Shown here piece by piece: positions 1 to 27,031 of a stretch of 38,756 nucleotides of DNA (positions are counted from its first letter, which is position 1; each line of letters opens with the position of its first letter). The translations under genes and the position numbers were made by a program. The notes under the pieces are model-generated. The model saw only the letters and a list, made by a program, of their open reading frames with translations. It was not told the DNA's origin and made no database searches. Source of the DNA: an archaeon (GTDB taxonomy: Archaea > Nanobdellota > Nanobdellia > Pacearchaeales > GW2011-AR1); the NCBI GenBank assembly GCA_030593225.1, contig JAUVHP010000001.1, forward strand, positions 1 to 38,756, given 5' to 3'.

Positions 1-1
1 A

Positions 2-1546: not shown

Positions 1547-1728
1547 GAACAATAAATTTCTCTAATTTGTTTTTAATATTTTAATTAATCTTTCTTGAAA
1601 AATAGTCGCATAATTGTTTGTTAAATTGTGTGGCTGTTTTTTCTTCTTTCAATTTCCTTTTCCAACTATATTTTTTTTGCAAAATTTCGATTATAAAAAT
1701 ATTTAAACTAATTTTTATTAATTAAATT

Positions 1729-2196
1729 ATGAAAAACTTATTTGAAATTTTGAATATTGCAGAGGAAGATAAAAAATATTTTTATTGGTTTTTTTTAGCG
1801 TTGTCTACTTTTATAATAATTAATATAATTTTTGATCCTTTTAGAATTTTGAATAAATTTGGAATGGGAATTCTTCCTTTAATATTAACGTTTTTAACAT
1901 CTATTTATTTTGGGATGTATACTTATATGAAAATTTTAAGTATTATATTTTTTTTACCTTTATTTTATGTTTTTTATAGAATAAGTAGGAGAAAAATACA
2001 TAAAATATATTTTTTATTATTTTTTAGTTTTATTTTTATTGCTTTATCTCCTTTATTAATTACTATTTATTTTATTTATCTTTGCAGAAATGGTGGGGAT
2101 ATGGGATGCTTCTTGATTTTTGCCACAATCCCAATAATAATTATCTCAAGTTTAATAGCATACTTTTTTTATTACAAATCAGAAGGTCTTAAATAA
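1729..2196 (+). CDS. Hypothetical polytopic membrane protein
   Basis: 155-aa ORF made almost entirely of hydrophobic segments. No recognisable motif. Confidence 0.55.
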   Translation: MKNLFEILNIAEEDKKYFYWFFLALSTFIIINIIFDPFRILNKFGMGILPLILTFLTSIYFGMYTYMKILSIIFFLPLFYVFYRISRRKIHKIYFLLFFSFIFIALSPLLITIYFIYLCRNGGDMGCFLIFATIPIIIISSLIAYFFYYKSEGLK

Positions 2197-2267
2197 TTTT
2201 TATTTTTTTTGTAAAAATGTAGTGTATAAACGTAACATTTAAATAATATGTAGTGTATAATTATATT

Positions 2268-3182
2268 ATGGTATCACTTAGAAAAATTAAAGTTGCAGGA
2301 AAAGGATATTGGATTTTGATTCATTCTTTTAGAGAAGGAGAGAATGTAAAACAAAAGCAAAAATACATTGGGAAATTTCTTCCTAAAAAGGCAGAGCTTG
2401 ATAAGATGAAAAAGAAATTTTTAGAGGAGATTAAGCATAAGGGAACTAAGTATTTTTCACAAGAAGATTTGGAAAAAATTGAAAAGAAAAAGTTAGAATA
2501 TACAAGAGAATTAAGAAGATTAAGTAAGATTGAGAAAGATAAAAAACTGAATGAATTTATGATAAGATATACTTATGATAGTTCTAAGCTTTCAGGGATA
2601 GATGTTACGCTTCGCCAGACATTTTTAATTTTACAGGAAGGAATAATTCCTAAAGAGTTTAAGAGTTTGCGTATAGCCAAGGAATTAGAAAATCATGAAA
2701 AGGGTTTTATTATGATTACAAAATATAATGGGATTTTTAATTTGAATTTTATAAAAAAGTTGCATAGAATTTTAATGAATGGGGTAAATGATGAAATTGT
2801 AGGAAAATTAAGAAATGAATTAAAAAGAAATGTAAAAATTGCAGGAACAACTTATATTCCTTCAAAATGGGAGAATCTTGAAAAGGAAATAAAAAACTTT
2901 TTTATTTGGTATAAAGAAAATTCTAGAAAATTGCATCCTTTGGAACTTGCTGCTTTAGTTCATTTAAAATTAATTTCAATACAGATTTTTGTAGATGGAA
3001 ATTCGCGACTTTCTCGACTTTTAATGAATTGGATTTTATGGAAAAAAGGTTATCCTATGATTGATATTCCGATAAGGGATTTAGAAAATTATTATAATGT
3101 TTTAGATTATTATCAAATAGAGAAAGATGAAAAACCTTTTGTAAAATATATTAAGAAGAGGTATTTATTGGAAAAAGATTAA
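2268..3182 (+). CDS. Fic/DOC-family protein with degenerate active-site motif
   Basis: Fic-core-like segment LVHLKLISIQIFVDGNSRLSRLLMNWILWKKGYP aligns to HPFx(D/E)GNGRxxR, but His is Gln and the second Gly is Ser. The ATG at 2268 is preferred over the GTG at 2253. Confidence 0.8.
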   Translation: MVSLRKIKVAGKGYWILIHSFREGENVKQKQKYIGKFLPKKAELDKMKKKFLEEIKHKGTKYFSQEDLEKIEKKKLEYTRELRRLSKIEKDKKLNEFMIRYTYDSSKLSGIDVTLRQTFLILQEGIIPKEFKSLRIAKELENHEKGFIMITKYNGIFNLNFIKKLHRILMNGVNDEIVGKLRNELKRNVKIAGTTYIPSKWENLEKEIKNFFIWYKENSRKLHPLELAALVHLKLISIQIFVDGNSRLSRLLMNWILWKKGYPMIDIPIRDLENYYNVLDYYQIEKDEKPFVKYIKKRYLLEKD

Positions 3183-3284
3183 TTATTTTTTTTGCAAAAT
3201 TTTTACTTTGACATTTATTTTTTTTGCAAAATTTCTATACTTTATTCTATAAATTAATTTAAACTTCTTTAATATTTTTCTTTT

Positions 3285-4490
3285 ATGGATAATATAAAAT
3301 TTGAAGTAATTAATAAAATCAGTAAAATAAATTTTAAGTATAATAATTTGAAAAAGATTTCTAAGATTGATAGTATTTCTCCACCGAGTGTTTTTATTGG
3401 TTCAAAGTTGAAGTATCCTTTGGTAAATGTTGGGATTTTGTCGCCTTTGGATAATATTGATAATGCGTGGATTTATGACGATGCGAAATATTGGGCAAAG
3501 AATGATTTTGGTATTTCTGATGTTATTAAGTTAAGAGATAATCTTCTTAATTCTCGTTTTCAATCTAAGGTTAGTGATTCTCGGTTTAGTAAAAGATTTG
3601 TTGGTATTGCTCAGGAAATTGCGATTGCTTCTAAGCCAGTGGATGTTGAAATTGAGTTGAAAAGAAAATTGAATTTTGATAAAAGAAAAGATAAAGTTTT
3701 AATGCATCAGGGAATGAGTGCGCCCTTGAAAGGGGCAAGGATTACTAGTAATGTTAAGGTTCATAAAAAAGTTGATAGAGTTATGAATGATGAAATTAAA
3801 TCAAAAGAGGGAATTGAATATTTGTATAAAAATAATTTTGATGAGTATGCTTTGAGTAAAATTTTGAGTGTTGGTGTTTTGGGTTTGAAAAAGGACAAGC
3901 GGTTTGTGCCGACGAGATGGAGTATTACTGCGACTGATGATATTCTTTGTAAGAAAATTTTAGAAAGAGTTAAAGAATATAAATGGATTGAGAATTATGA
4001 ATTATTTTTTGGTGAGTTTATGGGAAATTGTTATTTGATTATGCTGTTTCCAAATGTTTTTAATTTTGAATTATTTGAGTTATATCTTCCTGGAAGTTCT
4101 TGGAATCCTTCTCAACAAATCAAGGCATCAACTGATTATGAAAATTTTTTTGGAAGAAAAACTTATGCAAGTAATTGTGCTGGAGGATATTATGCTTCGC
4201 GGTTGCCTATTGTTGAATATTTGAATTCAATAAAAAAACAAGCAAGTGTTTTAGTTATTAGAATTGAGACACCGTCGTATTGGGCTTCATTAGGTGTTTG
4301 GGTATGTCGAGAAGCTTGCAGAAAAACTATTAATGGTAGAAAACTAAAATTCGGTTCAAAAGAAGAGTTATTAAATTCTGCTGAAATTATTGCAAAAAAG
4401 AAATTTAATTTTGATATTGAGAGCATCCTCACAAAAAGTAAGTTATTAGATAAGATAAATACCCAAAAAAATCTTAATGAATTCTTTTGA
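3285..4490 (+). CDS. Nre-family (DUF650/DUF651) archaeal DNA-repair-associated protein; its last ~63 codons appear to be supplied by an inserted cassette
   Basis: 401-aa ORF with the PTRWSITATDD motif that I recall as typical of archaeal NreA-like proteins. The C-terminal 63 codons have a diverged second copy downstream at 5500-5688. Confidence 0.65.
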   Translation: MDNIKFEVINKISKINFKYNNLKKISKIDSISPPSVFIGSKLKYPLVNVGILSPLDNIDNAWIYDDAKYWAKNDFGISDVIKLRDNLLNSRFQSKVSDSRFSKRFVGIAQEIAIASKPVDVEIELKRKLNFDKRKDKVLMHQGMSAPLKGARITSNVKVHKKVDRVMNDEIKSKEGIEYLYKNNFDEYALSKILSVGVLGLKKDKRFVPTRWSITATDDILCKKILERVKEYKWIENYELFFGEFMGNCYLIMLFPNVFNFELFELYLPGSSWNPSQQIKASTDYENFFGRKTYASNCAGGYYASRLPIVEYLNSIKKQASVLVIRIETPSYWASLGVWVCREACRKTINGRKLKFGSKEELLNSAEIIAKKKFNFDIESILTKSKLLDKINTQKNLNEFF

Positions 4491-5499
4491 TGAACCTTTC
4501 TGTTTTTTGAGCTAGAGTACAAGTGGGAAATTTTTCAGATATTTTTAACATATCTTTATAAAATTTATTATAACTTTTTGAAGAGATACTAAATCTATAA
4601 ACATCAAATTTTCCATAGGCATACTTTTCTCTAAGAGGGTGGCAAATATATTTGCATTTTATGCCTATTTCTCTAATATCATTCATTAATCTTTTATTTT
4701 TTCCATAGATTGTAATAACTTCTCCAACATGTCCTTCGTCAACAATGAAGGAAATAAGTCCCGCAAATAAAAATTGTTTATTTAATTTTTTAATATTTTC
4801 TGGAATGTATGCTTCAAAAGTATTTGTGTTTGGAAGTTTAAAGTAATATTTATAAAATTCTGTGATAATTTTTGGGATATTTAATCTTCCATTTTTATAT
4901 TCTCTCATGGGGTAATTAAAATCCCCAAAGATGTTATTTAATTTTTTTAGAAAATTGTTTAAACCCATATTATTCATTTGCCTATATGATGATACAACTG
5001 TTTTTCTTCCAATATGTCCATCTCCCACAAAATGAAAAATAACTGAGATCATTTCTGGAGTAAGGCTTAAAGGTAATTTTGGATTAGTTATATTATGGGA
5101 TTTTCCAGTTCCAGTATAATATTCTATATTTTGTTCTATGTCTCTTAAAACTTCTTTATAGTTATCTTTTGAAATAATCTTTGATGCTTCAATTAATATC
5201 CACAGAGGAATATTTATATTTTTTATTTTTCCTCTATCTTTTTTTTCTCCAATCTTCCAATATGAAAGATGCCCTGAATTATATTTTCTTTTTATTCCGT
5301 ATTTTTTTGATGATTTATTTAATGAATGTAATAATCCTTTTCGAGAACCTTTTATTTCTTTAAGATTTTTGAAGAATTTTATTCTAAATTCTTTTTTTAA
5401 TCCAATAAATGTTAGTGTTGGATGAAATTCCCAAATATGTATTTCTTTATATTTTTTCATAATTTATCTAAGATTTTTGTGTTTATATCGTTTATGTAA
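4299..5499. mobile_element. Free-standing homing-endonuclease cassette: replacement nre 3' end (4299-4490) plus an oppositely oriented LAGLIDADG gene
   Basis: The cassette lies between the point where the two nre C-terminal copies begin to align (Trp codons at 4299 and 5500). It contains only the HEG and the new gene end. Confidence 0.65.
4474..5460 (-). CDS. Two-motif LAGLIDADG homing endonuclease
   Basis: Two dodecapeptide-like motifs, VIFHFVGDGHIG and FAGLISFIVDEGHVG, about 100 aa apart. Basic N-terminal region. The 3' end overlaps the nre stop convergently by 17 nt. Confidence 0.8.
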   Translation of the reverse strand: MKKYKEIHIWEFHPTLTFIGLKKEFRIKFFKNLKEIKGSRKGLLHSLNKSSKKYGIKRKYNSGHLSYWKIGEKKDRGKIKNINIPLWILIEASKIISKDNYKEVLRDIEQNIEYYTGTGKSHNITNPKLPLSLTPEMISVIFHFVGDGHIGRKTVVSSYRQMNNMGLNNFLKKLNNIFGDFNYPMREYKNGRLNIPKIITEFYKYYFKLPNTNTFEAYIPENIKKLNKQFLFAGLISFIVDEGHVGEVITIYGKNKRLMNDIREIGIKCKYICHPLREKYAYGKFDVYRFSISSKSYNKFYKDMLKISEKFPTCTLAQKTERFIKRIH

Positions 5500-5688
5500 T
5501 GGGTTGTTAGAGAATCAGTAAGAAAATCTTTGAAAAATAAAATAATTTTTGATTCTAGAGAAGAATTAATTGAGAGTGTTAAACAAATTTCAAAAATTAA
5601 ATATAATTTTGATTGTGAAAATATTTTACAACAAAGTAAATTGTTAAAACAAATTAAGACGCAGAAAAATTTGGTAGAGTGGTTTTAG
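5500..5688 (+). pseudogene. Displaced original 3' end of nre (62 codons + stop, no start, preceded by an in-frame TAA)
   Basis: Translation WVVRESVRKSLKNKIIFDSREELIESVKQISKIKYNFDCENILQQSKLLKQIKTQKNLVEWF* aligns with the end of the intact gene, WVCREACRKTINGRKLKFGSKEELLNSAEIIAKKKFNFDIESILTKSKLLDKINTQKNLNEFF*. Roughly half the residues are identical by eye. Confidence 0.75.
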
Positions 5689-5738
5689 GGATAGATTTAT
5701 TAATCACTTTACTTTTTTATAATTAATTAAATAAAAAA

Positions 5739-5984
5739 ATGGGTGATAAGATGGATTGTGAATATAAACATTGTAATGCTATTCTTGCAATAGTTATTTT
5801 GGTTTTTTCATTTTGGCAAGTAACTTTGAATTGGTTTACTTCAAAATGGATAATTGTTGCTGTCGCTGTTTTGATTTTATTCAATAGTATTGGTTCTGGT
5901 AAAAGTAATAATAGAATATGCAGTGTGAAGAAAGTTTCAACAAAGAAAAAGGCAAAAAAAGCTGTTAAGAGAAAGAAGAAATAA
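5739..5984 (+). CDS. Small membrane protein with Lys-rich C-terminal tail
   Basis: 81-aa ORF with two hydrophobic segments followed by KKVSTKKKAKKAVKRKKK. Preferred over the overlapping antisense ORF 5723..6028. Confidence 0.5.
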   Translation: MGDKMDCEYKHCNAILAIVILVFSFWQVTLNWFTSKWIIVAVAVLILFNSIGSGKSNNRICSVKKVSTKKKAKKAVKRKKK

Positions 5985-6222
5985 ATAGTTTCACTATTTA
6001 TATCATTAATTCGTTCAGGCGTGGCCAAATTGAAGAAAAAGTAATTTTTTATTTTTTTATTTTCTTCTTGTTTTGTTTATTTAGATAATTTTTTGTAGAT
6101 TTTTATTTTCAAAGTTTGGGGGAGATTAAGGATATTTTACACGTAGTATTTCATTATTGTAACTCAATTTGGTTTTGTAAAATATTCAAAAAAAGGACTA
6201 TATAAATTTTTTTTATGAAAAA

Positions 6223-6609
6223 TCAATTTAACTTATCGTTGTGGAATAATGACTGGATAGAACAGTATTTTTCCAGAATAAAGTTTATTAAACATGATAA
6301 AACATAGTAATAAATTAATTTTATTATAATGCGGGTTATCAAAATGATTCTCCTAGCTATGTGATAAGGTAATGGAATGTATGAGGAAATATCAATATTC
6401 CCAAGAACCATGCTTAAAGGGTCAAGTGCCCACCTAAATATTACTATAATCCAAACCAAAAAAAAGCCTGGATCAAAAGAAAATGATGGGGGAAATGGAA
6501 CATCTATCAGACCAAATGTTAAAAAAATGGACAAAAAATAACCACCAATCAAAAAAACTGTAATCCAGAATTTTTTCCATGTGAATCTAAAAAAATCTTT
6601 CCAACCCAT
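6223..6609 (-). CDS. Hypothetical membrane protein
   Basis: 128-aa ORF with several hydrophobic helices. Confidence 0.55.
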   Translation of the reverse strand: MGWKDFFRFTWKKFWITVFLIGGYFLSIFLTFGLIDVPFPPSFSFDPGFFLVWIIVIFRWALDPLSMVLGNIDISSYIPLPYHIARRIILITRIIIKLIYYYVLSCLINFILEKYCSIQSLFHNDKLN

Positions 6610-6830
6610 AATTTATTATAAAATAAAAACTATTTAAATTTAATTAAAGAATCAATCTAAGTTGATATTAGTTGTATAATAAAAGATATCTGAGCAGTTT
6701 CTTTTGGCTCTCAAGTTCACTTGCCTATGACACTTCACAAATTAATATTAGTAAAGTCATTCTGTTCCCTACCTTGTCCCCGAGAAGTCGTTTTTTTCTA
6801 CACTTTAATAAAAATTACGCGAATGCGAGA

Positions 6831-9323
6831 TTATTCATTCTCCATCTCCTTCCTCTGTCTGTATTCTTCAATTCTTTTTTTGTTTGTTGGACATTCAGAG
6901 TTAAAACAAAAAAACCATGGGCGTTTGCCAAAACGTAAACTCATTAACATTGGGAAACCACATTCTTCACAAAGTTTTTCTGTTTTTTTGATTGTGCCTG
7001 GAGGAAGTGAGAAAGTTGTTTTGCAATTTGGATATGCGTCACACGCAATAAAATGTTTTCGTGTTTTTTTAGAGTAAGTTATTGCTAAATTTCCTTTTTT
7101 ACATTTTGGACACAGCACTAATTTATTTTCAATTTTTTGTTGTTCTCTTTGTTTAATATTTGCATTAAGTAATTCTTTTCCTATTTCTTTTTCATGTTTT
7201 TCAAAATCTTTTGCTATTTTTGTAATTGTTTTTTTTGCAGTGTCAATTACATTTTGTTTCTTTTTTTCTAAATCTTTTTTTGACTTGAGAATTCCTTGCA
7301 TTTTTTCTTCAAGATTTTTTGTTAATTTTTCATCTATTATAATTGGAGAGTGTTTTTCTAATGTATTTATTAGTGATATTCCAAGCGGAGTTGCTGTGAC
7401 TGATTTATCTTTTACATATCCTCTGTCGTACAATGTTTCAATAATTGACGAGCGTGTTGCTTTTGTTCCTAAATTTCTTTTTTCTAACTGCGAGATTATA
7501 GAGGCAGGGGAATATCTTTTTGGAGGTTGTGTTTCTTTTTTTTCTATTTTTTTTTCTATTATATTTACTTCCCCCTCTATATCTGGAATTTCATTTTCTT
7601 TTTGTTTTGTAGGATAAATTTCCATCCATGCTTTTTTTCTTATTGACATTCCTCTAGCATTAAAAATTAACTTTTCTTGAGTTATCACTTTCTCCCCTGT
7701 TTCTGATAATGAATTTTTTTGCCCCTCTCCCAGTCCTTTTTGCTGTGATAACTCTTTGTTTTTAATTTCAACTTCTACTGAAATTGTTTTATTATCAATA
7801 ATGGCATCATCACAAAATAAAGCTAGAAATCTTTTTACAATTAAGTTGTATATTTTTTCTTCGTTACCTGCAAAAATTCCTTCATTGCCTGTTGGATAAA
7901 TTGAAGGGTGTGCAGGGTCTGTTTTTTTACCTTCTATTGGTTTGTCTTTTGTGATTAGTTTTTGAACTTTGTATTTTTTTGCAAGTTTTTGTAAAATTGT
8001 TTTGTAATCTATTGATGAAGGTAATTTTTGTGAAGAGGTTCTGGGGTAAGAGATTGCTCCAGTTAAATAAAGTGATTGTGCTGCTTTGAGGGTATTTGAA
8101 GGAGTTATTCCGTAGAATTTGTAGGCCTCTGTTTGCAGTGTTGTTAAATTAAATGGGGGATTTGGTGGAAGAATTGTTTCTGATTTTTTTGTTTTTGCGG
8201 TTGCAGTTTTTCCAACAAGATTTTCAAATTTTTTTAATTCTTTTTCATTGAAAATATCTTTATTATGTTTAAGTTGAAGTTTATTTTTTTTATCTTCCAC
8301 AGTTATAAAAATTTGCCAATATGGAACTGATTTAAAATCTTGTATTTCTTTTTCTTTTTTTACAATTAAATTTAATGCTGGTCCTTGAACTCGTCCGATT
8401 GACATTATTCTGAATGTGCCTGTTGTTTTAATTGCGTTCATTAATGCTCGTGAAAGATTGATTCCATAAAACCAGTCAATATAATGACGAGCTTCTCCTG
8501 CTGAGGCCTGGCCCCATTCAAGATGTTTTAGTTTTTTTTCATAGGCCTTATTTAATTCATCTGGTGTAAGTGTTGAGAATTTCATTCTGCTTGCATCTTT
8601 TTGTCCGCAAATATATTTTACAATATTTGTTCCAATTACCTCGCCTTCTATATCAAAATCAGTTGCAACAGTTATACTTCCTGCGTTTTTTGCGAGTTTG
8701 ACTAATGTGTCATAATATCTTTTAGTGAAATCGTTTTTTCTTGCTAAATAATTTGGAACCCAACTAATGTCAAAAATTGGAATATGTGAGCCAGGAATGT
8801 TTTGTTTTAATGTGAACAAATGTCCTACTGCACATGCAACATATATTTTTTTGCCATTTTTATCTATTTCATAATATGGAACTTTTTGATGATTTTTTTG
8901 TGTAGGTTTTCCAAGTGCTTGTGCAATTTTCGAAGCTGCTTGAGGTTTTTCTGTAATTATTAGTTCATAGCCCTTATCTTTTAATTTTATTTTTGGAGGA
9001 ATATATTTTTTTTCTTTTGTTGTTGTTCTTTTTGAAATTCTTTTTTTTATAGTTCTTTTTTTTCTTGTTTTTCTTTTTGGATTTTCTATTTTTTCTAATT
9101 GTTTTTTAGTTGGTTTAGAATAAGTTTTTTCTACTGATTTTTTTAATATTTCTTCAATGGGTTGGGATTCTTTTATTGGAATCTCTCTTGATTTTTTTAA
9201 AATTTCTTCTTGTTGAGGTTTTCCTTTTTCTAATTTTTCTGTTGTTTTTCTTAAATTGCTTTCATCTACTGGAAAATAATTTTCAGAAGATTTTTCTTCT
9301 TTTGTTTTTTTTAGTTTTTTCAT
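6831..9323 (-). CDS. topA: DNA topoisomerase I (type IA) with Lys-rich N-terminal extension and C-terminal zinc ribbons
   Basis: Toprim region ELIITEKPQAASKIAQALG and DFDIEGEVIG. Active-site Tyr context GAISYPRTSS. C-terminal CPKC..C..C and CEEC..C..C zinc-finger motifs. Confidence 0.92.
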   Translation of the reverse strand: MKKLKKTKEEKSSENYFPVDESNLRKTTEKLEKGKPQQEEILKKSREIPIKESQPIEEILKKSVEKTYSKPTKKQLEKIENPKRKTRKKRTIKKRISKRTTTKEKKYIPPKIKLKDKGYELIITEKPQAASKIAQALGKPTQKNHQKVPYYEIDKNGKKIYVACAVGHLFTLKQNIPGSHIPIFDISWVPNYLARKNDFTKRYYDTLVKLAKNAGSITVATDFDIEGEVIGTNIVKYICGQKDASRMKFSTLTPDELNKAYEKKLKHLEWGQASAGEARHYIDWFYGINLSRALMNAIKTTGTFRIMSIGRVQGPALNLIVKKEKEIQDFKSVPYWQIFITVEDKKNKLQLKHNKDIFNEKELKKFENLVGKTATAKTKKSETILPPNPPFNLTTLQTEAYKFYGITPSNTLKAAQSLYLTGAISYPRTSSQKLPSSIDYKTILQKLAKKYKVQKLITKDKPIEGKKTDPAHPSIYPTGNEGIFAGNEEKIYNLIVKRFLALFCDDAIIDNKTISVEVEIKNKELSQQKGLGEGQKNSLSETGEKVITQEKLIFNARGMSIRKKAWMEIYPTKQKENEIPDIEGEVNIIEKKIEKKETQPPKRYSPASIISQLEKRNLGTKATRSSIIETLYDRGYVKDKSVTATPLGISLINTLEKHSPIIIDEKLTKNLEEKMQGILKSKKDLEKKKQNVIDTAKKTITKIAKDFEKHEKEIGKELLNANIKQREQQKIENKLVLCPKCKKGNLAITYSKKTRKHFIACDAYPNCKTTFSLPPGTIKKTEKLCEECGFPMLMSLRFGKRPWFFCFNSECPTNKKRIEEYRQRKEMENE

Positions 9324-9372
9324 TGCTTTTAAGAAGAACTTGGGTTTTTATTATTTTTCGTTAAATGAAAAA

Positions 9373-9987
9373 TTAAATCTCAAATATTGCAGGGTTTCTT
9401 CCAACATGAATTACTTTTGTTTTTCCAATTTGTTCTTGGACTCCTCCTGCTTCGTGAATGTGTGCGGAAATTAAAACATCTGGATGAAATTTATCAATTG
9501 CTTTTTTGACTGCTTTTGAGCCAGGAAATCCTGAGAATTCTGCCTTGCTTCCGTGGTGATGTGCATGAGTTACCATGATTTTCTTTTTTGAATCTTTTAT
9601 TGCTTTGTGTCCTTTTTTAAGTGTTTCAAATATTGTTTCGTCTTTTACCCAGAAGGGTCCTGTTACTGGTTCATAACCTGCTCCGAAAATTCCTATGTCA
9701 CCTTTTTTTATTGAGTAACCATGAATGTTTGTTGTTCCTGGATAAAGTTGTGCTAGAAAATCTGTTGTTGCGATTGTTTCGTGGTTTCCAGGAATTAGTA
9801 AAACTTCTTTTTTTGCTTTGATAAAAGGACCAATTAAATTTTTTGTTGATTTTTCAAAAAAAGTTATATCTCCTGCAAGAATTACCAAATCTATTTCTTC
9901 GTCTTTTGCTTTTTTTGCTAATTTTTTTACCAGGCCTGTGTCGCCGTGAATATCCCCTATTGCAAGAATTTTTATTTTCTTTTTCAT
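9373..9987 (-). CDS. Calcineurin-like metallophosphoesterase
   Basis: Motifs GDIHGD, GDITF, GNHE, THAHHHG and SAHIHE appear in the canonical order. Confidence 0.88.
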   Translation of the reverse strand: MKKKIKILAIGDIHGDTGLVKKLAKKAKDEEIDLVILAGDITFFEKSTKNLIGPFIKAKKEVLLIPGNHETIATTDFLAQLYPGTTNIHGYSIKKGDIGIFGAGYEPVTGPFWVKDETIFETLKKGHKAIKDSKKKIMVTHAHHHGSKAEFSGFPGSKAVKKAIDKFHPDVLISAHIHEAGGVQEQIGKTKVIHVGRNPAIFEI

Positions 9988-10212
9988 AATAGATTAAAAT
10001 AATAGTATGTTAAAAAGTTTTGCAAATTTTATTACTATAAACCAGTAAAAGTATTTTTCTATTAGCTAGTATTGTAAAATATACTTTGCAAAACATTTAT
10101 AAGTTAATTCTTTTCTGAATATATAGATTGAAATATATATCTAAACAAATAAAATGAAGGCAAAAATAAAATTTTTCAATGCATTCAAATTCCTACAAGG
10201 AAGTAAATTTAA

Positions 10213-10479
10213 ATGAAAGACAACTTTGATATCTTTTTTAGAAGAAAGCCAGCGCTGATGTTGGTTTCTTTGAAGAAGAGTACGCGGATGAGGTATGGTA
10301 GTCTTTTGGCTAAAGAAGTGGATTGCACTTATAGCCATGCTGTGAAAATTTTGCAGACTTTGGAAGAACTGAAGTTAGTTGTGTTTGAAAAAAAGGGGCG
10401 AATAAAGGTGATAAAACTAACTAAGAAAGGTCGAGAAGTTGCTGATGCAATTGAGAATATCCAGAGTTTAGTTAAGTAA
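10213..10479 (+). CDS. Small winged-helix transcriptional regulator (ArsR/MarR-like)
   Basis: 88 aa. RYGSLLAKEVDCTYSHAVKILQTLEELKLVVFEKKGRIKVIKLTKKG shows an HTH followed by a beta-wing pattern. Confidence 0.7.
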   Translation: MKDNFDIFFRRKPALMLVSLKKSTRMRYGSLLAKEVDCTYSHAVKILQTLEELKLVVFEKKGRIKVIKLTKKGREVADAIENIQSLVK

Positions 10480-10571
10480 GAAAACCATTGCCCCTGAAAA
10501 TGATTGAATTGACTTAGTGGTAAGTGTGCTTTTTGTTTCTTTTTGGTTTATACTTCGTTATTTCCTTCCTT

Positions 10572-10587
10572 GTGTACTTGAGTACAC
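10572..10587. promoter_or_regulatory. Inverted repeat GTGTAC-ttga-GTACAC, preceded by ccttgtgta as at 21273 and 24172
   Basis: Read directly from the sequence. The half-site cYTTGTGTA recurs upstream of both cdc48 operons. Confidence 0.35.
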
Positions 10588-10621
10588 GGCGGAAGCAAAG
10601 TGCCTCGTCTAAACTTCCACC

Positions 10622-10672
10622 CAAGGGTGTACCCCGAAAAATTTTTTTCAAAGATTTTTACTAAGGGCAAAA
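10622..10672 (+). repeat. Copy A of a conserved 51-nt element (copy B at 24223-24273)
   Basis: The ungapped alignment has 44 of 51 identical bases: caagggtgtacYccgaaa..tttttt.caaa....tttactaagggcaaaa. Confidence 0.6.
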
Positions 10673-10770
10673 AATAAATCAAAAAATGGGGATTGGAAAT
10701 TAGAGAAGTGGGAAATATTAAATTTTTTTGAAATCAATGGTTTTTTAAATTATTTTTAGATAGAATTGTT

Positions 10771-10786
10771 AATGGCTTCGTAGCTC
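10771..10786 (+). repeat. Exact 16-nt duplicate of the tRNA-Lys 5' end plus 3 upstream nt (aatggcttcgtagctc)
   Basis: Identical to 10873-10888. It is followed by an unusually GC-rich 86-nt spacer. Confidence 0.7.
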
Positions 10787-10875
10787 TGCTCGGAACCACG
10801 CTCGGGATTGGCAAGAAGGTTTGTCCTTCGCGTAATTCCTCGGCCTGGTCTGACCAGTCTTCGTAGTCAACAAAT

Positions 10876-10950
10876 GGCTTCGTAGCTCAGCCTGGTCAGA
10901 GCATCAGACTCTTAATCTGGGTGTCGCGGGTTCAAATCCCGTCGAGGCCA
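10876..10950 (+). tRNA. tRNA-Lys(CUU): tRNA-Lys (anticodon CUU)
   Basis: Manual cloverleaf: acceptor ggcttcg/cgaggcc, D arm gctc-agcctggtc-agagc, anticodon stem tcaga/tctgg with loop ctCTTaa, T arm gcggg-ttcaaat-cccgt, discriminator a. No encoded CCA. Confidence 0.9.
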
Positions 10951-10962
10951 TTCATTTTTAAT

Positions 10963-11286
10963 ATGGTAATCAGATTTTGTCCTACGTGCAAAGGGATTTT
11001 AATTTTGGGAAAAGAAAAAGCAGTTTGTCATAGTTGTGGTTTTGTTCAATATTCTAAAGTGGTTTTATCTTCAAATGAAAAATTACCTGAAAAAGAAGAA
11101 ATTGGCGAGGGTGCTGTTAAAGGGGAAAATGTTTTTGCGACTTATGAACATAAATGTAAAAATTGTGGGTATGATAAGGCACAAGTTATTGATTGCGGTA
11201 TTTTTTATTCTGATGAAGATAATTTGATTTTTTTAAAATGCGGTAAATGTGGAACTTCAGAACGAGTTGGTGATAAGGCTTTGTGA
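10963..11286 (+). CDS. TFS/RPB9-like double zinc-ribbon paralogue with altered catalytic loop
   Basis: N-terminal ribbon CPTC..CHSC. C-terminal ribbon CKNC..CGKC with IFYSDEDN in place of the canonical QTRSADEP. The ATG at 10963 was chosen because the tracked ORF start at 10921 lies inside the tRNA. Confidence 0.75.
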   Translation: MVIRFCPTCKGILILGKEKAVCHSCGFVQYSKVVLSSNEKLPEKEEIGEGAVKGENVFATYEHKCKNCGYDKAQVIDCGIFYSDEDNLIFLKCGKCGTSERVGDKAL

Positions 11287-11303
11287 AATTTTAATAAATT
11301 TTT

Positions 11304-11609
11304 TTAACTATAATCTCTCCAAGTTTCTTCGCATTTTATACACTTAAAGAATTTTGTTGGTGCCTCGTCTGAAGAACGTGTTTGTTGCATCCAAAAATAT
11401 GCTTTTTTATGTGAACATTTTGGACATTCTTCATCTACTATTGGGTGAATGTCTATTTTTTTTGAAATTATTGGGATTTCTTTTCTTTCGTTTATTTTTT
11501 CTATTATTTTAATATCTGCTTTTTCTTTGGAAGTATAATTGCATCTTGGACAACCTGCGTTTTTTGTTTTTTGTACTAGAATCGCTCCGCACTTTGGACA
11601 GAATAACAT
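11304..11609 (-). CDS. tfs: Transcription factor S (transcript cleavage factor)
   Basis: MLFCPKCGAIL..CPRC N-terminal ribbon. CPKC..QQTRSSDEAPTKFFKCIKC C-terminal ribbon with the acidic loop. A TATA-like tttttaaa lies about 21 nt upstream of the ATG at 11609. The longer tracked ORF to 11684 is a spurious extension. Confidence 0.9.
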   Translation of the reverse strand: MLFCPKCGAILVQKTKNAGCPRCNYTSKEKADIKIIEKINERKEIPIISKKIDIHPIVDEECPKCSHKKAYFWMQQTRSSDEAPTKFFKCIKCEETWRDYS

Positions 11610-11611
11610 AT
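11593..11611. repeat. Left attachment-site core (19 nt, tttggacagaataacatat), spanning the tfs start codon
   Basis: Identical to 20274-20292. The extended 64-nt homology 11581-11644 versus 20262-20325 has 50 of 64 identical bases, ungapped. Confidence 0.75.
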
Positions 11612-11653
11612 TGAACCTTAATAATGCGGATTTAAAAAACTTACGAAAAAAAG

Positions 11654-11812
11654 ATGGAAACAAAAAAACAAACCCAAAACCCAAAATTCAAATTTTACAG
11701 CAAAGGCGATAGAATCTATTATAAGAATTTCAATTTTAACGATGATTTTAACGAAGGTTTGCCCTATGCTGAGGAATTAATTAAAGAGGTGTTGGAAAGT
11801 GGCAAGAGATAG
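11654..11812 (+). CDS. Small hypothetical protein (52 aa) of the element
   Basis: Hand-translated ATG ORF METKKQTQNPKFKFYSKGDRIYYKNF.. that is below the ORF-track cutoff. No motif. Confidence 0.3.
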   Translation: METKKQTQNPKFKFYSKGDRIYYKNFNFNDDFNEGLPYAEELIKEVLESGKR

Positions 11813-12199: not shown

Positions 12200-12509
12200 A
12201 AATGAAAAAACTCTATTGTGAACTTAGTCCTTTTCAAAGATTTCTAAAATTAATAATTAACACAGAAACTAAAAAAATCGACTTAGTAACTGGAGTTAGT
12301 ATTTTGCTGAGAAGATAAAATATATTAATCGAAATTAGCGGTTAGATATTCAAATAGACTACAAATAACAAACTTACAATAGCGACGCTAATAATAAGTT
12401 TTATTAAAAATTTGATTAAAAATAATATCTTCTTAAATAAATAAATTAAGTTCGTAAGTTTAGGCTTAATTTTTCAATAGTACTAAGTCGAGTTACTAAC
12501 TCAAAAAAA

Positions 12510-12821
12510 ATGGGAAAACCAAAAAAAGATTACACAAAAACAATTAATTTCGGCAGGGTTGGAAGTCCTGCAAGAATACTTGTAGAAATGTATATTAAAG
12601 AAAATGGAAACAATAAACTTTCTAAATTAATGCAAGAATTAATTATAATTTATCTCTCAGATGACCCAAAATTTAAAGGTTGGAAAAAAGAAAAAATGAT
12701 TTTTGAAAAAAAGAAATTGGGCGAAGAAATTGTTGAGAAAGTAAAACAGCGAGAGGATTTAGATAAAAGATTTATAAAAAAATTTGGGAAAGCAGAATTC
12801 GCAAAAGCGTTTTATTCATAA
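12510..12821 (+). CDS. Hypothetical protein (103 aa)
   Basis: ORF with a charged, helical-looking sequence. It follows the AT-rich repeat-flanked region. Confidence 0.55.
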   Translation: MGKPKKDYTKTINFGRVGSPARILVEMYIKENGNNKLSKLMQELIIIYLSDDPKFKGWKKEKMIFEKKKLGEEIVEKVKQREDLDKRFIKKFGKAEFAKAFYS

Positions 12822-12845
12822 TAATTAAATTTAATGGAGGTAAAA

Positions 12846-12950
12846 ATGACAGAAGATATAACAAAAAGGTTTGAAGAACTTGAAGCAAGAGTTAAAGCTC
12901 TTGAAGAAAAGAAAGTCGAAGAACCATCAACCGCACCTGCAGTTGAGTAG
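12846..12950 (+). CDS. Small coiled-coil-like protein (34 aa)
   Basis: GGAGG lies 6 nt upstream of the ATG. Sequence MTEDITKRFEELEARVKALEEKKVEEPSTAPAVE. Confidence 0.35.
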   Translation: MTEDITKRFEELEARVKALEEKKVEEPSTAPAVE

Positions 12951-13027
12951 GGTTTTTCGCAATTTATTTTTATTATTTTATTATTTTATAGAAGACAACT
13001 TAATTAAATCAAACAGGAGGAAAAACA

Positions 13028-13276
13028 ATGGAAAGAAAACAAACACCCTTTAGATATGATGAATCCCTAGAGAAAGATATTGATGAATGTAAAAAGTGTC
13101 AAAGATGGGGAAGTAAGAAAAATCAGGCAATTATTCATGCCGTTCAAATTGCGGCACAAATCATTCGAGCATCAAAACCTAAAAAAGAAAGTAATGGATA
13201 TAGTGATTATTATAATGTTAAAGAAGCAATTGAAAAGAAGTTTAAGGTTAAAGTTGAATTGGATAGTGGATATTAA
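13028..13276 (+). CDS. Hypothetical protein (82 aa)
   Basis: AGGAGG lies upstream of the ATG. No motif. Confidence 0.5.
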   Translation: MERKQTPFRYDESLEKDIDECKKCQRWGSKKNQAIIHAVQIAAQIIRASKPKKESNGYSDYYNVKEAIEKKFKVKVELDSGY

Positions 13277-13287
13277 ATTTATTGCAA

Positions 13288-13520
13288 GATGATATCACGT
13301 TGCATGATCTAAAAAGTGATATCATTGTTCCTGGACCTGCAATAATGATATCAAAACACGATCGTGAAAAGATATCAAATTTATCTGCAGACAAAAAAGA
13401 TATCACTTCTGATCTAAAGTGATATCAAAGTGGCCGTAAAAAAAGATATCATCTGTTCCAGGAACAATGATATCAAAAGAAGATCATGAAATGATATCAG
13501 CTCCAGGTCACGATATCACA
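13288..13520. repeat. Array of ten GATATCA (mostly TGATATCA) iterons
   Basis: GATATC starts at 13291, 13318, 13347, 13371, 13399, 13421, 13445, 13469, 13493 and 13512, giving spacings of 19-29 nt. The array lies in the gap between convergent gene modules. Confidence 0.85.
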
Positions 13521-13527
13521 TTAGATT

Positions 13528-21839: not shown

Positions 21840-24133
21840 AAAAAAAACAAATTCAATTGAAAGTTACTGAGGCATTGCAGGACGATGTTTACAAAGGTAT
21901 TGTGAGAATTGATAATTCTATTATGAGGGAGATTGGAATTAATCGAGGAGATATTGTTTTGATTAGAGGTAATCGTGAAACTGTTGCAATGGCTGACAGG
22001 GCTTATCCTTCTGATATTGGTCAAGGAATTATTCGGATTGATGGAATTTTAAGAAGAAATGCTCGGACAGGTATTGGGGATGTTGTGGCAATTTCAAAAG
22101 CTTGTGTTAGTGAAGCAAAAAAAATTACAATTGCTCCTGCACAAAAAGGAATTATGGTTCAAGGAGAGCCAGAACATTTGAGACGAGGATTGTTGGGCCG
22201 AACTGTTGTTAAGGGAGATTTAGTTGTTTTAGGAGGTGTTCAGCGAAGGAAAGATTTATTGTCAGATGATTTTGGGGATTTGAATGATGTGCTTGGAAAT
22301 ATGTTTAATGGAATGGGGCTTGGAAATTTGGGAGGTGGAATTTCACAGATTAAGTTTAGTGTTGTTAATGTTAGTCCTACTGGTCCGATTATAATTACTG
22401 AAAAGACTGAAGTTGTTTTAAATTCAAAAGCAGTTGATATTATAGAAGATAGTATTTCTGAAATTAATTATGAAGATATTGGAGGGTTAGGTGAGGAGAT
22501 TAAAAAGATTCGTGAGATGGTTGAGATTCCTTTAAAGCATCCAGAGATTTTTGATAGACTTGGTGTTGAGCCACCAAAAGGTGTTTTGCTTCATGGTCCT
22601 CCTGGAACAGGTAAAACTTTATTAGCGAAGGCTGTTGCAAATGAATCAGAATCTAATTTTATTTTACTTAATGGTCCTGAAATTATGAGCAAGTATTATG
22701 GTGAGAGTGAGAAAAAGATAAGAGATATTTTTGCAAATGCTGAAAAAAATGCTCCGTCAATTGTTTTTATTGATGAAATTGATGCGATTGCTCCCAAGAG
22801 AGAAGAGGTGCATGGTGAGGTTGAAAGGCGTGTGGTTTCTCAAATTTTGACAATGATGGATGGGTTACAATCTCGTGGGAAAGTTGTTGTAATTGGTGCA
22901 ACAAATAGAGTTAATTCACTTGACCCTGCATTAAGAAGACCTGGAAGATTTGATAGGGAAATTGAAGTTGGAGTTCCTGATAAAAATGGGCGTCTTGCGA
23001 TTTTACAAATTCATACTCGTGGAATGCCATTGAACAAGGATGTTAATCTTAAAAATTTAGCTGGTTTGACGCACGGATTTGTTGGTGCTGATTTAGAATC
23101 TTTGTGCAAAGAGGCGGCAATGAATGTTTTGAGAAAAGTTTTGCCTCAAATAAAGCTTGACAGCGAGGAACAAATTTCTCCTGAGGTTTTGGAAAAGTTA
23201 GTTGTAAAATATAGTGATTTTATGGATTCTTTAAAAGTTGTCAGACCTTCGGCAATGAGGGAAGTTTTAGTTGAAACACCTAATATTAATTGGGATGATG
23301 TTGGAGGTATTGATGAAGTTAAAGAAGAATTAAAGGAAGCAGTTGAGTGGCCGATAAAATATCGAGATAGTTTTAAGAGAATTGGAATTAGACCTTCTAA
23401 GGGGATTTTGCTTTATGGTCCGCCTGGAACAGGTAAGACACTTTTGGCAAAGGCAGTTGCTAAAGAGAGTGAAGCGAATTTTATTCAGATTAAAGGTCCG
23501 TCGCTGTTATCTAAATGGGTGAATGATTCTCATAAAGGAATGCAGAAAGTTTTTGAAAGGGCTAGGCAGGTTGCACCTTGCATTATATTTTTTGATGAAA
23601 TTGAATCTCTTGCGTCAAAGAGAACTGTGGGTGACAATGGGTCAAGTCAAGAGGCGACAAAAGTTTTAAACCAAATGCTTGCTGAGATGGATGGGCTTGA
23701 GGATTTGAATGATGTTTTGGTTGTCGCAGCGACGAATAGACCTGATATGCTTGATACAGCTCTTTTGCGTCCAGGAAGATTTGATAGAGTGTTGCTTGTA
23801 AATGCTCCTGCTGAAGAAGGTAGAAAAATAATTTTAGATATTCATACAAAGAAAATGCCTTTGGCAAAAGATGTAAAAATTAATGAAATTGCAAGGAAAA
23901 CCGAAGGGTATACTGGTGCTGATTTGGAATCATTAACTCGTGAGGCAGGTATGCTTGCACTTAGAGAATCTATTGATTCAAAAGAGGTTTGTAAAAAACA
24001 TTTTGATGAAGCATTAATTAAAATTAAACCTAGTGTAACTAAAGCAGCGATTAGTGTTTACCAGAAGATTGAGGATAACTTTTTGCAGTCGGCAAAGGCG
24101 GCTATTATTCCTAGTGCAGGGTATTTAGGATAA
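21833..24133 (+). CDS. cdc48: Cdc48/VCP/VAT-type AAA+ ATPase (paralogue 1)
   Basis: N-domain motif, two AAA modules each with [15 protein letters not shown], Walker [10 protein letters not shown] / IIFFDEIES, and SRH RPGRFDR twice. Confidence 0.95.
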
Positions 24134-24222
24134 AATGAAAAACAAAAAACTTATAAATAAAAATATATACGCTTTGTGTATACAGAAATAAAATGGAAAA
24201 AAATGAATTAAATTTGGACACT

Positions 24223-24273
24223 CAAGGGTGTACTCCGAAACTTTTTTTACAAAAAAGTTTACTAAGGGCAAAA
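24223..24273 (+). repeat. Copy B of the conserved 51-nt element, ending at the hsp20-like start codon
   Basis: 44 of 51 bases identical to 10622-10672, ungapped. Confidence 0.6.
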
Positions 24274-24704
24274 TGAGTTTTTTTGATGACGATAATGAAA
24301 TTGGAATAGAAGATATATTTAGTCGTTTAACTGGTGGAGGTGGATTTAGAAGTAATTCTCGAAATGAGAGTTTTGTAGAAATTTCTGATTCTTCTGGTAG
24401 AAAGCAATTTGCAGAAGTGTTTAAAGAACTTCCTTGGAAAAATTTTCTTTTGGACAGAGTAGTTACAAAAAAAGCAATTCATTTTATTTTTGATTTTTCT
24501 TCTAAAAAAAATATTTTTGTGAAAGTTAAAGATGAGTTGATTATAAATAATTATAATAAAAAAATTTCTACTGGAAAAAAAGTTTTACTGATAGAAGAAA
24601 AAGGGGAGCTAATAACAAATCCTTTCTTGCTTGAAAATATTAAAACTTCTAAATTTGATTTTACTTTTAATAATGGTATCTTGGAGGTATCTTTTAAAAA
24701 ATGA
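24273..24704 (+). CDS. Divergent Hsp20/alpha-crystallin-like small heat-shock protein
   Basis: The C-terminal pattern [38 protein letters not shown] resembles the beta7-beta9 region of sHSPs. ATGA overlap with the following cdc48. The ATG at 24273 is preferred to the GTG at 24228. Confidence 0.55.
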   Translation: MSFFDDDNEIGIEDIFSRLTGGGGFRSNSRNESFVEISDSSGRKQFAEVFKELPWKNFLLDRVVTKKAIHFIFDFSSKKNIFVKVKDELIINNYNKKISTGKKVLLIEEKGELITNPFLLENIKTSKFDFTFNNGILEVSFKK

Positions 24705-27031
24705 AAGAAAGCAAATTATCTTTAGATATTGTTGAGGCAAAGCAGAATTTTAGAGATAAAAATATAGTATCCATTTCTACAGAAGATATGGAAGATCTTA
24801 AAATTTCTTCAGGCGATTTTGTTTTAGTGGGAAATAGTAACAAAATTGTTTTTAGAGTTATAAGAGGAGAGGATTTGCAAAAAGGAAAAATTGGAATAGG
24901 AGGAATTATTAGGAGTTCTTTGGATGTATCTTTAGAAGAAAAAATTGAAGTTTCGCCAATTAAAAAATTAAATAAAATTAATTCTTTTGAAATTGCAGTA
25001 TTGGAAAATTCGGAAGTATCTAATGATGATATAGAAAAAAACTTAATCCCTGCTTTAAAAAAAGAGGAAAATAAATCTTTTTTAAAGCAACAATTTGGAG
25101 GGAATGTGGTTTCTTTGAAACAAAGAATTAAAGTAATTTTTCCTGGAGGAATTTCTGTTATTTGCGGAGTTACTAGAATCATTCCAAAGAAATTTGCTTT
25201 TGGATGTTTCAATAATGACGTAAAAATTTTGATTTCTAGTTCAGTCGAGAAGGGATCTGGTGTTAATGTTTATTATGAAGATATTGGTGGCTTGAAAGAA
25301 GAGATAGAAAAAATTAGAGAGATGGTTGAATTTCCAATGAAGCATCCAGATATTTTTCAGAGGTTAGGTATTAGTGCTCCTAAAGGTGTGCTTTTAACTG
25401 GTCCGCCTGGAACTGGTAAGACTTTATTGGCGAAGGCAGTTGCAACTGAGACAGATGCTAAATTTATTTCTATTGCTGGTCCTGAAATTATGAGTAAATA
25501 TCATGGAGGGTCTGAGGAAAATCTAAGGGCTAAATTTGAAGATGCTGAAAAAAATGCTCCCGCTATTATTTTTATTGATGAGATTGATGCTATTGCTCCG
25601 AAGAGGGGGGAGAGTCACGATCAAACTGAGAAAAGAGTTGTAGCACAATTATTAACTTTGATGGATGGTTTGAAATCTCGAGGGCAATTAGTTGTTATGG
25701 CTGCGACAAATCGACCGGATGATTTAGATGAAGCATTGAGAAGACCTGGGCGGTTTGATAGAGAGCTTAAAATTAATCCTCCAACAGATGAAGGAAGAAA
25801 AGAGATTTTGAAAATTCATACAAGAAATATGCCGTTAGATAATAGGGAGAAAATTTTAGATGAGTTTTCTAAGAAGACTTTGGGATATACTGGTGCTGAT
25901 TTGGAAGTTTTATGTAAGGAGGCTGCATTAAGAGCGGTTAAACCTTTTTACAAGGAGTTGGTTAATTTTGGCGAGGAGTTAGAGTCTTCTGATGAGGAGT
26001 CTTCGATTAATTTGGAATCAAAAAAGCAAAAATTATTATCTTCGATTGTGGTGAATAGTGAACATTTTAATTATGCTTTGAGAAATGTTGAACCGTCGGC
26101 AATGCGTGAGGTTTTGATTAATAAGCCGAATGTTACTTGGGGTGATATTGGTGGTTTGGAAAAGGCAAAGGAAAAATTAAGGGAATTAGTTGAGTTGCCG
26201 TTGCTTCGTCCTGAGTTATTTAAGATGGCTGGTATTAAACCTTCAAAAGGTGTTTTGCTTCATGGTCCTCCTGGAACTGGAAAAACTCTTTTGGCAAAAG
26301 CAGTTGCAAATGAAGCGAATGCGAATTTTATTTCTGTTAAAGGTCCTGAATTAGTTAGCAAGTGGGTTGGAGAATCAGAGAAACATATTCGTGAGATTTT
26401 TAAGAAAGCACGGCAGGTTGCTCCGGCAATTATTTTCTTTGATGAGTTTGATTCAATTTCTAAAATGAGGGGCTCTGGTCTTTCAGATTCAACTGAGAAA
26501 ATTGTTAATCAATTATTAACTGAATTAGATGGTGTTGAGGAGTTGGAGAAAGTTGTTATTATTGCTGCGACAAATAGGAAAGATTTAATTGATGAATCAT
26601 TGTTGAGAGCAGGAAGAATTGATGCACATGTTGAGTTGCCGATTCCTGATAAAGTGACGAGGGAAGCGATTTTTAATGTTCATTTGAAGAAAATGCCTCT
26701 TGGTCCTGGCGTGGATATTAAGAAAATGATTGACAGAACAGAGGGTTGGACTGGGGCAGATATTGAAGTAACTGCTAGGGAAGCGGGAATGAGAGCAATT
26801 AAGAGAGTTTATGGGAAGAAAGATGTTAAGAAATTTGAGATTACAAAAGATGATTTTGATTTTGCTTTGAAGAGTATTGGAGAGCAGATTGGGAAAGGAG
26901 AGAAGGAAGAGGAGAAAAAAGAAATGGGAGAAGAGGAAATGCAAAAGATTATGAAGGAGATGGAGAAATCTAAGAGGAAGGTTGAAGAGAAAGAAGTTAA
27001 GAAAAAAGTTGTGAAGAAGAATTCTAAATAG
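24701..27031 (+). CDS. cdc48: Cdc48/VCP/VAT-type AAA+ ATPase (paralogue 2) with divergent N-domain and long Lys/Glu-rich C-terminal tail
   Basis: Two AAA modules ([15 protein letters not shown] twice, [25 protein letters not shown]). The tail reads [46 protein letters not shown]. Confidence 0.95.

Follow-up and report, generated by a model that had tools for sequence, protein, structure and literature searches.

Cassettes made up of a protein and an array of repeated DNA sites are already known. Plasmid centromeres bound by ribbon-helix-helix (RHH) proteins include the type Ib ParG-parH system of TP228, the omega protein with its heptad arrays on pSM19035, and the type II ParR-parC systems of R1 and pSK41. 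Here we describe a cassette carried by a provirus within a 38,756-nucleotide stretch of archaeal DNA (contig JAUVHP010000001.1; the whole stretch is called the window throughout). It consists of an array of ten WGATATCA sites (13288..13520, plus strand) and, directly upstream, the gene for an 82-amino-acid protein, RHH82 (13028..13276, plus strand; MERKQTPFRY...), which is the last gene of the plus-strand early cluster and the presumed array binder. What is new is the alternating-palindrome grammar of the array, and its occurrence in a poorly known group of mobile elements. Like the RHH plasmid centromeres, which place a small dimer-type protein beside 4–12 short repeats, the locus looks like an exchangeable cassette on which a higher-order complex would be expected. 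Unlike them, it has no partner nucleoside triphosphatase (NTPase), its array lies downstream of the gene instead of at the promoter, and a second palindrome lies between sites that are spaced 25 bp apart. RHH82 has no sequence relationship to the plasmid RHH centromere binders, and its assignment to the RHH proteins is one that we infer.

Other plasmids and episomes offer closer parallels to the layout of the locus. On F, sopC comprises 12 repeats of 43 bp after sopB, and the incA iterons of P1 and incC iterons of F follow repA and repE; the role of these arrays is segregation or copy control rather than initiation. The array described here resembles them in standing directly 3' of the putative binder gene and in containing many regular sites with a short dyad core. 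Their binders, by contrast, are ParB-type helix-turn-helix (HTH) or winged-helix Rep proteins, accompanied on the same replicon by a ParA ATPase or an origin, and neither is seen here. Maintenance arrays that work independently of an NTPase include StbA-stbDR of R388 and EBNA1 with the family of repeats of Epstein-Barr virus oriP, whose units of ~30 bp each hold a palindromic dimer site. One DNA-binding protein and a tandem array of sites are enough in those systems to position or tether an episome, and our locus likewise pairs one putative DNA-binding protein with such an array; the proteins and hosts are unrelated, however, and tethering or a host partner could be proposed here purely by analogy.

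In archaea, SegB is an RHH protein that binds palindromic sites (bioRxiv 10.1101/2025.02.07.637068). Archaeal viruses encode the RHH factors F55 (SSV1), SvtR (SIRV1), AvtR (AFV6) and E73 (an RH3 fold, with a third helix), which bind repeated or dyad motifs and oligomerise cooperatively along DNA from high-affinity sites (PMC5569661). RHH82 is, like these, a small viral protein with a predicted strand-helix-helix(-helix) layout. Their sites occur in ones and twos at or next to promoters, whereas the sites described here stand 4–10 together at the 3' end of a gene and are missing from the promoters of the provirus. The array also recalls the iteron origins of theta plasmids and the archaeal origins built from origin recognition boxes (ORB) and a DNA unwinding element, in that putative binding motifs are repeated at even spacing in non-coding DNA. 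It differs from them in having no Rep protein, no AT-rich unwinding element, a core of only 8 bp and no conservation among relatives.

Results

The array is linked to one protein family

GATATCA starts in the array at 13291, 13318, 13347, 13371, 13399, 13421, 13445, 13469, 13493 and 13512, with successive spacings of 27, 29, 24, 28, 22, 24, 24, 24 and 19 bp, and the sites span 13291-13518. Both strands of the window together hold 21 matches to this motif, against 5.8 ± 2.7 expected from dinucleotide-preserving shuffles of the window, none of which reached 21. An initial annotation of this DNA had reported ten GATATCA copies at 19–29-bp spacing within ~230 bp, mostly as an 8-bp palindrome; the site count and the shuffles bear this out, and the full palindrome TGATATCA occupies six of the ten sites. 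Each site is preceded on the plus strand by an A-tract. The short palindromes that had been named in the spacers (cacgatcgtg, tgttccaggaaca, ctgcag and tcatga) are all present. A higher-order duplication, also proposed there, is real but modest: a 47-nt direct repeat (13331-13377 versus 13453-13499) is 81% identical, and two sub-blocks of the array align at 77% with gaps, block B having one unit more. The array further contains a perfect 19-nt inverted repeat (13317-13335 / 13457-13475). Tandem Repeats Finder did not call the array, because its conservation is limited to the 8-bp core, and an Rfam scan of the provirus, including the array, returned no match. At 33.9% GC, the array lies close to the mean of the provirus (32%); the window stands at ~29%.

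To compare this locus with its relatives, we used 19 homologs of the provirus capsid protein (41–70% identity). Their contigs, designated L121-L139, represent (pro)viruses of ~8–9 kb from Pacearchaeota or Nanoarchaeota metagenome bins, with conserved gene order. A GATATC array stands at the corresponding position in only 2 of ~12 capsid-defined relatives: L124, with seven sites at 24–28-bp spacing (6499-6662), and L129, with five at 25–28 bp (7034-7147). The same two are the only capsid-defined relatives in which tblastn and a six-frame profile search of open reading frames (ORFs) found an RHH82 homolog, and in each the gene directly abuts the array; none of the ~10 relatives without an RHH82 gene has an array. 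The syntenic relatives L121, L122, L130, L132, L133, L135, L137 and L139 lack a GATATC array, and no comparable array of another motif was found at the same place in array-less relatives. No array was seen in L126/L127 or L136 either, but these contigs end downstream of the structural operon. Absence from eight otherwise syntenic relatives, which the initial annotation had itself named as a refuting observation, tells against an essential replication origin or packaging site, both of which it had proposed. A block shared by L129 (6700-6745) and L130 (5860-5905) resembled an array without GATATC, but it belongs to the 3' end of a small minus-strand ORF (...LVDKKSGHF) and was set aside.

An exhaustive representative search for the RHH82 family gave 25 matches at E ≤ 0.001, ~22 of them small proteins (61–124 amino acids), and contigs were obtained for four further family members (L140-L143). 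Two of these, L140 (six sites, 2256-2386) and L143 (four sites, 6091-6171), carry arrays with spacings of 22–28 bp that begin inside the 3' end of the RHH82 homolog. Neither contig has any of the three provirus proteins that were queried (the packaging ATPase, RHH103 and HTH73), and neither is syntenic with the provirus in gene order, which leaves RHH82 as the one protein found to be shared. With that of the window, this brings the number of independent gene-plus-array cassettes to five. All five arrays begin at, or inside, the 3' end of an RHH82-family gene, their polarity relative to that gene is identical, and no neighbouring gene is common to all five.

As a negative control we used 120 IMG/VR loci with at least three GATATCA copies. 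None encodes an RHH82 member, and 0–3 of their spacers contain one of the four palindrome cores described below; those with at least four sites are mostly ordinary exact tandem repeats. The pattern of three GATATCA copies had been tried as a means of finding relatives and was rejected for this purpose as unspecific, since it retrieves mostly exact tandem repeats, with neither the grammar nor the protein. The initial annotation had suggested a protein-binding array, and this idea gains support from the strict co-occurrence with a single adjacent protein family, although RHH82 was absent from the three binders listed there.

The neighbourhood of the L143 cassette has features of its own. A DNA methyltransferase gene (5320-5841; phrog_954, E=3e-68) lies directly upstream of the RHH82 homolog, and its 5' part contains GATATC at 5404 and 5430, 26 bp apart, beside CTGCAG; a gene for a DnaA-like AAA+ protein (3920-4891) is found ~1 kb upstream. 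The remaining four elements with a cassette encode no methyltransferase.

An alternating-palindrome grammar

Every spacer of the array in the window holds one secondary palindrome, nine in all (13306..13507, without strand): GATC at 13306-13309, CCTGG at 13330-13334, CGATCG at 13359-13364, CTGCAG at 13385-13390, GATC at 13411-13414, GGCC at 13432-13435, CCAGG at 13458-13462, GATC at 13482-13485 and CCAGG at 13503-13507. Most lie exactly halfway between the adjacent GATATC centres. When 32 units from the five arrays are oriented with the gene upstream, a unit of ~25 bp reads as an A-tract, then (T/A)GATATCA, then a second palindrome, whose core is GATC, CCWGG, GGCC or CTGCAG. The 3' A of (T/A)GATATCA is present in 30 of the 32 units, and the second palindromes often extend to 8–14 bp, as in TTTAGATCTAAA, TGTTCCAGGAACA, TTAATGGCCATTAA and CACGATCGTG. 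One of the four cores occurs in 24 of the 27 internal spacers; shuffled spacers or genomic segments drawn at random give 1.6 ± 1.2. In 18 of these 24 the core is exactly equidistant from the flanking GATATC centres (from 9.5/9.5 to 14/14), where the null mean is 1.3, and the symmetry is therefore centred on the secondary palindrome despite spacings that vary from 19 to 29 bp. This exact centring is a sequence rule without a ready explanation. The order of core types is collinear among the arrays (GATC, CCWGG, GATC, (CTGCAG), GGCC), which indicates that the arrays are homologous, with palindromes kept and A/T filler diverged.

The DNA around the array strongly avoids GATC. The host portion of the window (1-11577 and 20325-38756) contains 13 copies against 64.7 expected, and the provirus 5 against 19.2, yet the 245-bp array retains four. 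In both the window and L124 the genome-wide observed-to-expected ratio is ~0.2 and GATC is nonetheless kept in the array, which indicates selection at the DNA level. Avoidance is also seen in L124, L132, L135 and L139, and is not seen in L129, L136, L137, L140 or L143. Because L129, L140 and L143 keep the grammar without avoiding GATC, the restriction status of the host does not explain the pattern. For the same reason we discarded the idea of a restriction decoy, in which the array palindromes would be those that the host avoids: this is true only of GATC in the window and L124, and not of L129, L140 or L143. Other GC-containing 4-mer palindromes (GCGC, GTAC, CCGG, GGCC and ACGT) stand at 0.4–0.6 in the window, and the under-representation of GATC and of these palindromes suggests restriction pressure in the lineage.

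The RHH82 ORF ends before the array in the window and L124 and reads through the first 2–3 units in L129, L140 and L143. Several family members consequently have C-terminal tails made from array units (...KKPGKKDIKNLDLKK, ...SKNDIAEKIIKMISVVPGESDI; L129 7093-7368, L140 2070-2327, L143 5908-6153; P0031, P0036, P0039), and cis element and coding sequence overlap in them. The distances between units are not multiples of three, and it is on the DNA that the constraint lies.

The RHH82 protein and sites elsewhere in the provirus

Members of the RHH82 family share a signature of K-Q-x-P-F-R-Y, a helix, a turn (W/Y-G-x-K-K-N) and a second helix (alignment A3). In an AlphaFold2 monomer model of RHH82 (mean predicted confidence, pLDDT, 80), residues 1-11 are extended and helices cover residues 12-24, 31-49 and 57-72; in the alignment, a G-S-K-K-N / WG-SKKN turn falls between helices one and two. 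The modelled layout is compatible with the strand-helix-helix of RHH proteins plus a third helix, and hhalign places the KQIPFRYPEEL strand of the family in register with MPQFNLRWPREV of Arc (the PQFNLRWP strand), without significance. From the layout we infer an RHH-like protein and stop short of claiming membership of a known RHH family. A word-indexed homolog search with RHH82 alone returned the self-match only. No homolog was present in the GenBank phage collection or among PLSDB plasmids, and the RHH82 alignment found no relatives in IMG/VR.

A two-unit mini-array (18186..18228, minus strand) obeys the same grammar as the main array: TGATATCA at 18186-18193, GATC at 18200-18203, GATATC at 18211-18216 and CCTGG at 18224-18228 follow one another at centre-to-centre distances of 12, 12 and 12.5 bp, and the segment is 72–77% complementary to array units over 39 nt. 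It lies ~175–215 bp past the start codon of a conserved gene for a 253-amino-acid HTH protein, HTH253 (17641..18402), which heads the structural operon, and falls in the region coding for a Lys-rich linker. The linker reads KKPGKKDIKKGSKSDIKK from the mini-array. The homologous HTH genes of L124 and L129 lack the mini-array.

Within the provirus, every site with at most one mismatch to TGATATCA lies in the array, in the mini-array (18186-18217) or in coding regions far from intergenic promoter regions. No such site is found at any provirus promoter as judged by eye, and the region ahead of the RHH82 gene is no exception.

The provirus and its other non-coding regions

The provirus measures 8.7 kb and is bracketed by a 68-nt direct repeat (11577-11644 / 20258-20325, 78% identity). 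Integration was into a protein-coding gene, as the overlap of the left copy with the 5' end of a TFIIS-type zinc-ribbon gene (11304..11684, minus strand) shows, and not into the tRNA-Lys gene (10875-10951). The provirus encodes a tyrosine integrase (19236..20012), a small packaging-type ATPase (18486..19031) that matches a PHROG terminase/ATPase family (7e-15), and a 278-amino-acid capsid protein (16286..17122, minus strand), for which an AlphaFold model reaches a pLDDT of 90. Foldseek matches this model to PRD1 P3 (E=1e-12), to the major capsid protein (MCP) of STIV (TM score 0.71) and to PM2 P2, which identifies the element as a double-jelly-roll provirus; the combination that defines such viruses, an MCP with an FtsK/A32-like packaging ATPase, is present. 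Capsid homologs with a named source come from Candidatus Pacearchaeota or Nanoarchaeota genomes, pointing to a DPANN archaeon as host. Neither the capsid protein alone nor the capsid alignment found relatives in IMG/VR, and the GenBank phage collection contains no homolog. One relative, L136, is a circular genome of 9.36 kb (91-bp terminal overlap), and episomal maintenance is therefore a relevant problem for this virus family.

As initially annotated, the array sits between convergent gene sets, flanked by the last plus-strand early gene and by the minus-strand structural operon, whose 3' end faces it. It does not occupy the only sizeable non-coding gap, as had been stated: its gap is the largest (13277-13527, 251 bp), but others measure 191 bp (12319-12509) and 206 bp (12822-13027). 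Pfam and PHROG scans of ten ORFs agree with the annotation that there is no recognisable Rep protein, and they detect no primase or polymerase in the provirus. A 56-nt repeat (17454-17509 / 18412-18467, 79% identity), which contains TTTATATAAAAATGTGGCGTTAAAA, looks like a shared TATA-box promoter module; one copy lies upstream of 17122..17442, and the second falls where the HTH253 and ATPase genes diverge.

A different region of the provirus is a better candidate for the origin or main operator than the array. At 12280-12502, 22-nt inverted repeats (12280-12301 / 12481-12502, 86% complementary) flank 179 nt of 21% GC, and the second arm ends 8 nt ahead of the ATG of an RHH-like gene (12510..12821). 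The same architecture recurs in L122, L133, L135, L124 and L132, with arms of 21–40 nt that are 121–179 nt apart, AT-rich DNA between them and differing arm sequences; unlike the array, it is family-wide. The lowest-GC stretches of the provirus are at 12.05–12.4 kb and ~20.0 kb. The gene that follows belongs to a second set of small proteins with an RHH-like N-terminus (TINFGRVGS.., STISFKIEKED.., LTISLDSEVV..), found in the window (12510-12821), L124 (7203-7490) and L129 (7365-7814). In each of these three related proviruses it stands upstream of the RHH82 gene; the two genes directly adjoin in L129 alone, and in the window and L124 it comes after one inverted-repeat arm. This second RHH-like protein may bind the inverted-repeat region, and the search for the provirus origin or main operator is redirected to 12280-12502.

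Discussion

What we observe directly is the array with its grammar, the homology of such arrays between elements and their strict linkage to the RHH82 family. From this pattern it is probable that RHH82 binds WGATATCA as a dimer and that the array assembles a multi-dimer complex. Our favoured explanation goes further: the array would be a set of RHH82 docking sites, and gene and array together a portable accessory cassette for plasmid-style maintenance, most likely exchanged between unrelated small mobile elements of DPANN archaea. In this scheme, RHH82 dimers would occupy each 8-bp WGATATCA palindrome, and 4–10 sites at 25 ± 2 bp, interdigitated with the centred secondary palindromes, would build an extended nucleoprotein complex where the early unit ends. 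While the virus is a circular episome, that complex would serve as its centromere-like, tethering or copy-control site, although the element itself encodes no NTPase. A cis-acting maintenance role of this kind, which would be analogous to that of RHH centromere-binding proteins on repeat arrays, is the most likely single function, at a probability that we put at 35–40%. We favour it because the cassette is portable and accessory, its many sites are evenly spread and no site is promoter-proximal, all of which suits a self-standing cis element better than a hard-wired operator, and because a circular relative, L136, exists. One feature of partition systems, multiple short repeats beside the binder gene, is present, in the form of 4–10 WGATATCA sites in five elements.

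Several observations weigh against this explanation. Pfam and PHROG scans found no ParA-, ParM- or TubZ-type NTPase in the provirus, where only the packaging-type ATPase was matched, and the cassette is therefore not a canonical partition system. Spacings of 19–29 bp make strict helical phasing between neighbouring dimers unlikely, and a model with one protein leaves the secondary palindromes unexplained. The element in the window is integrated, a state in which a centromere is not needed. A more distant RHH82 subfamily in L141 and L142 has a conserved protein tail and no array nearby. As to the fold, hhalign of RHH82 against Arc and CopG gave probabilities of ~1% or less, a Pfam search with 22 family members matched no RHH family at E ≤ 1, a profile search of PDB returned no RHH chain at E ≤ 10, and Foldseek against PDB and BFVD gave nothing below E=1.

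Transcriptional control is the main rival, and we regard it as rather unlikely. Here RHH82 would be an RHH-like viral regulator, with the array as a high-affinity nucleation or roadblock site at the convergent boundary of early and late genes; the complex would stop read-through or antisense transcription and, via the mini-array, repress late genes, for example in lysogeny. The RHH proteins of archaeal viruses that have been characterised (SvtR, AvtR and F55) are all transcription regulators (PMC5569661). In four of the five elements the array is found where the early unit meets convergent genes, and the mini-array lies inside the gene that heads the structural operon. Against this stand the promoters of the provirus, none of which has a TGATATCA-like site, and the position of ten sites at the 3' end of a gene, which is not an operator layout. 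Nor is the mini-array kept in L124 and L129, and a regulator whose sites were confined to the 3' end of its own gene would be hard to transfer usefully between unrelated genomes.

A broader variant of the maintenance explanation, which we hold to be improbable, takes the secondary palindromes into account. In such a composite code, GATATC sites with GATC, CCWGG, GGCC or CTGCAG dyads at their exact midpoints would form a previously undescribed, NTPase-independent element that anchors archaeal episomes. RHH-like dimers would sit on GATATC, interdigitated with sites for a second factor or for a DNA-methylation state. If this were true, the maintenance or silencing of DPANN mobile elements would be coupled to the host's replication or methylation cycle.

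Two further functions seem to us very doubtful. If the array were a replication origin, the GATATCA copies would be iterons on which an initiator or host Orc1/Cdc6 assembles and opens the DNA. The recurrence of sites at even spacing within the largest non-coding gap would suit such a role, as would the failure of Pfam and PHROG scans to recognise any other Rep-origin pair and the DnaA-like gene upstream in L143. The CCWGG units (TTCCAGGAA) may also be faintly reminiscent of archaeal mini-ORB dyads. The array is, however, absent from most syntenic relatives, is not AT-rich and adjoins no low-GC stretch for unwinding; its conserved core is 8 bp long, rather than the 17–22 bp of iterons, and no adjacent initiator gene was found. 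The inverted-repeat region at 12280-12502, with 21% GC and counterparts in the relatives (six are counted for this comparison), fits the role better.

The second of these doubtful functions is a methylation or restriction hub, in which methylation of Type II sites would gate protein binding, as in sequestration of the kind exerted by SeqA at oriC or in an epigenetic switch, or the sites would serve as a decoy. GATATC, GATC, CCWGG, GGCC and CTGCAG are all typical restriction-modification sites, GATC is avoided in host and provirus while four copies are kept in the array, and in L143 a methyltransferase gene, itself holding two more GATATC sites, lies just upstream. These points are offset by the grammar of L129, L140 and L143, which is kept without GATC avoidance, and by the lack of a methyltransferase in the other four elements. 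Moreover, strains differ in their restriction-modification specificities, but elements from different samples have conserved the same palindrome types.

It is still less probable that the array is evolutionary debris, left when a 3' coding extension of the RHH82 gene decayed or slipped, and now without function. The ORFs that read through into the first units in L129, L140 and L143 would fit such an origin, as would a 46-amino-acid ORF that is open across units 1-5 in the window. Unit spacings that are not multiples of three, and palindromes kept in coding and non-coding contexts and in different frames, do not, and the exact centring and the retention of an otherwise avoided GATC argue for selection on the DNA. 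Least probable of all is a pac signal for genome encapsidation: a cis-site array beside a small predicted DNA-binding protein is reminiscent of some small-terminase/pac pairs, and P1 pac is built of short repeated hexamers containing GATC, but the array is accessory within a virus family that shares its capsid protein and packaging ATPase, and it is also present in elements without that ATPase.

The cassette offers a concrete and testable protein-site pair, an 82-amino-acid protein and an 8-bp palindrome within an array of defined grammar. If binding as predicted proves true, it would be a candidate building block for stabilising vectors. To our knowledge, almost nothing is known about the replication, persistence and regulation of DPANN viruses and plasmids, and the cassette would then be the first candidate for a cis-acting maintenance or control module in these elements.

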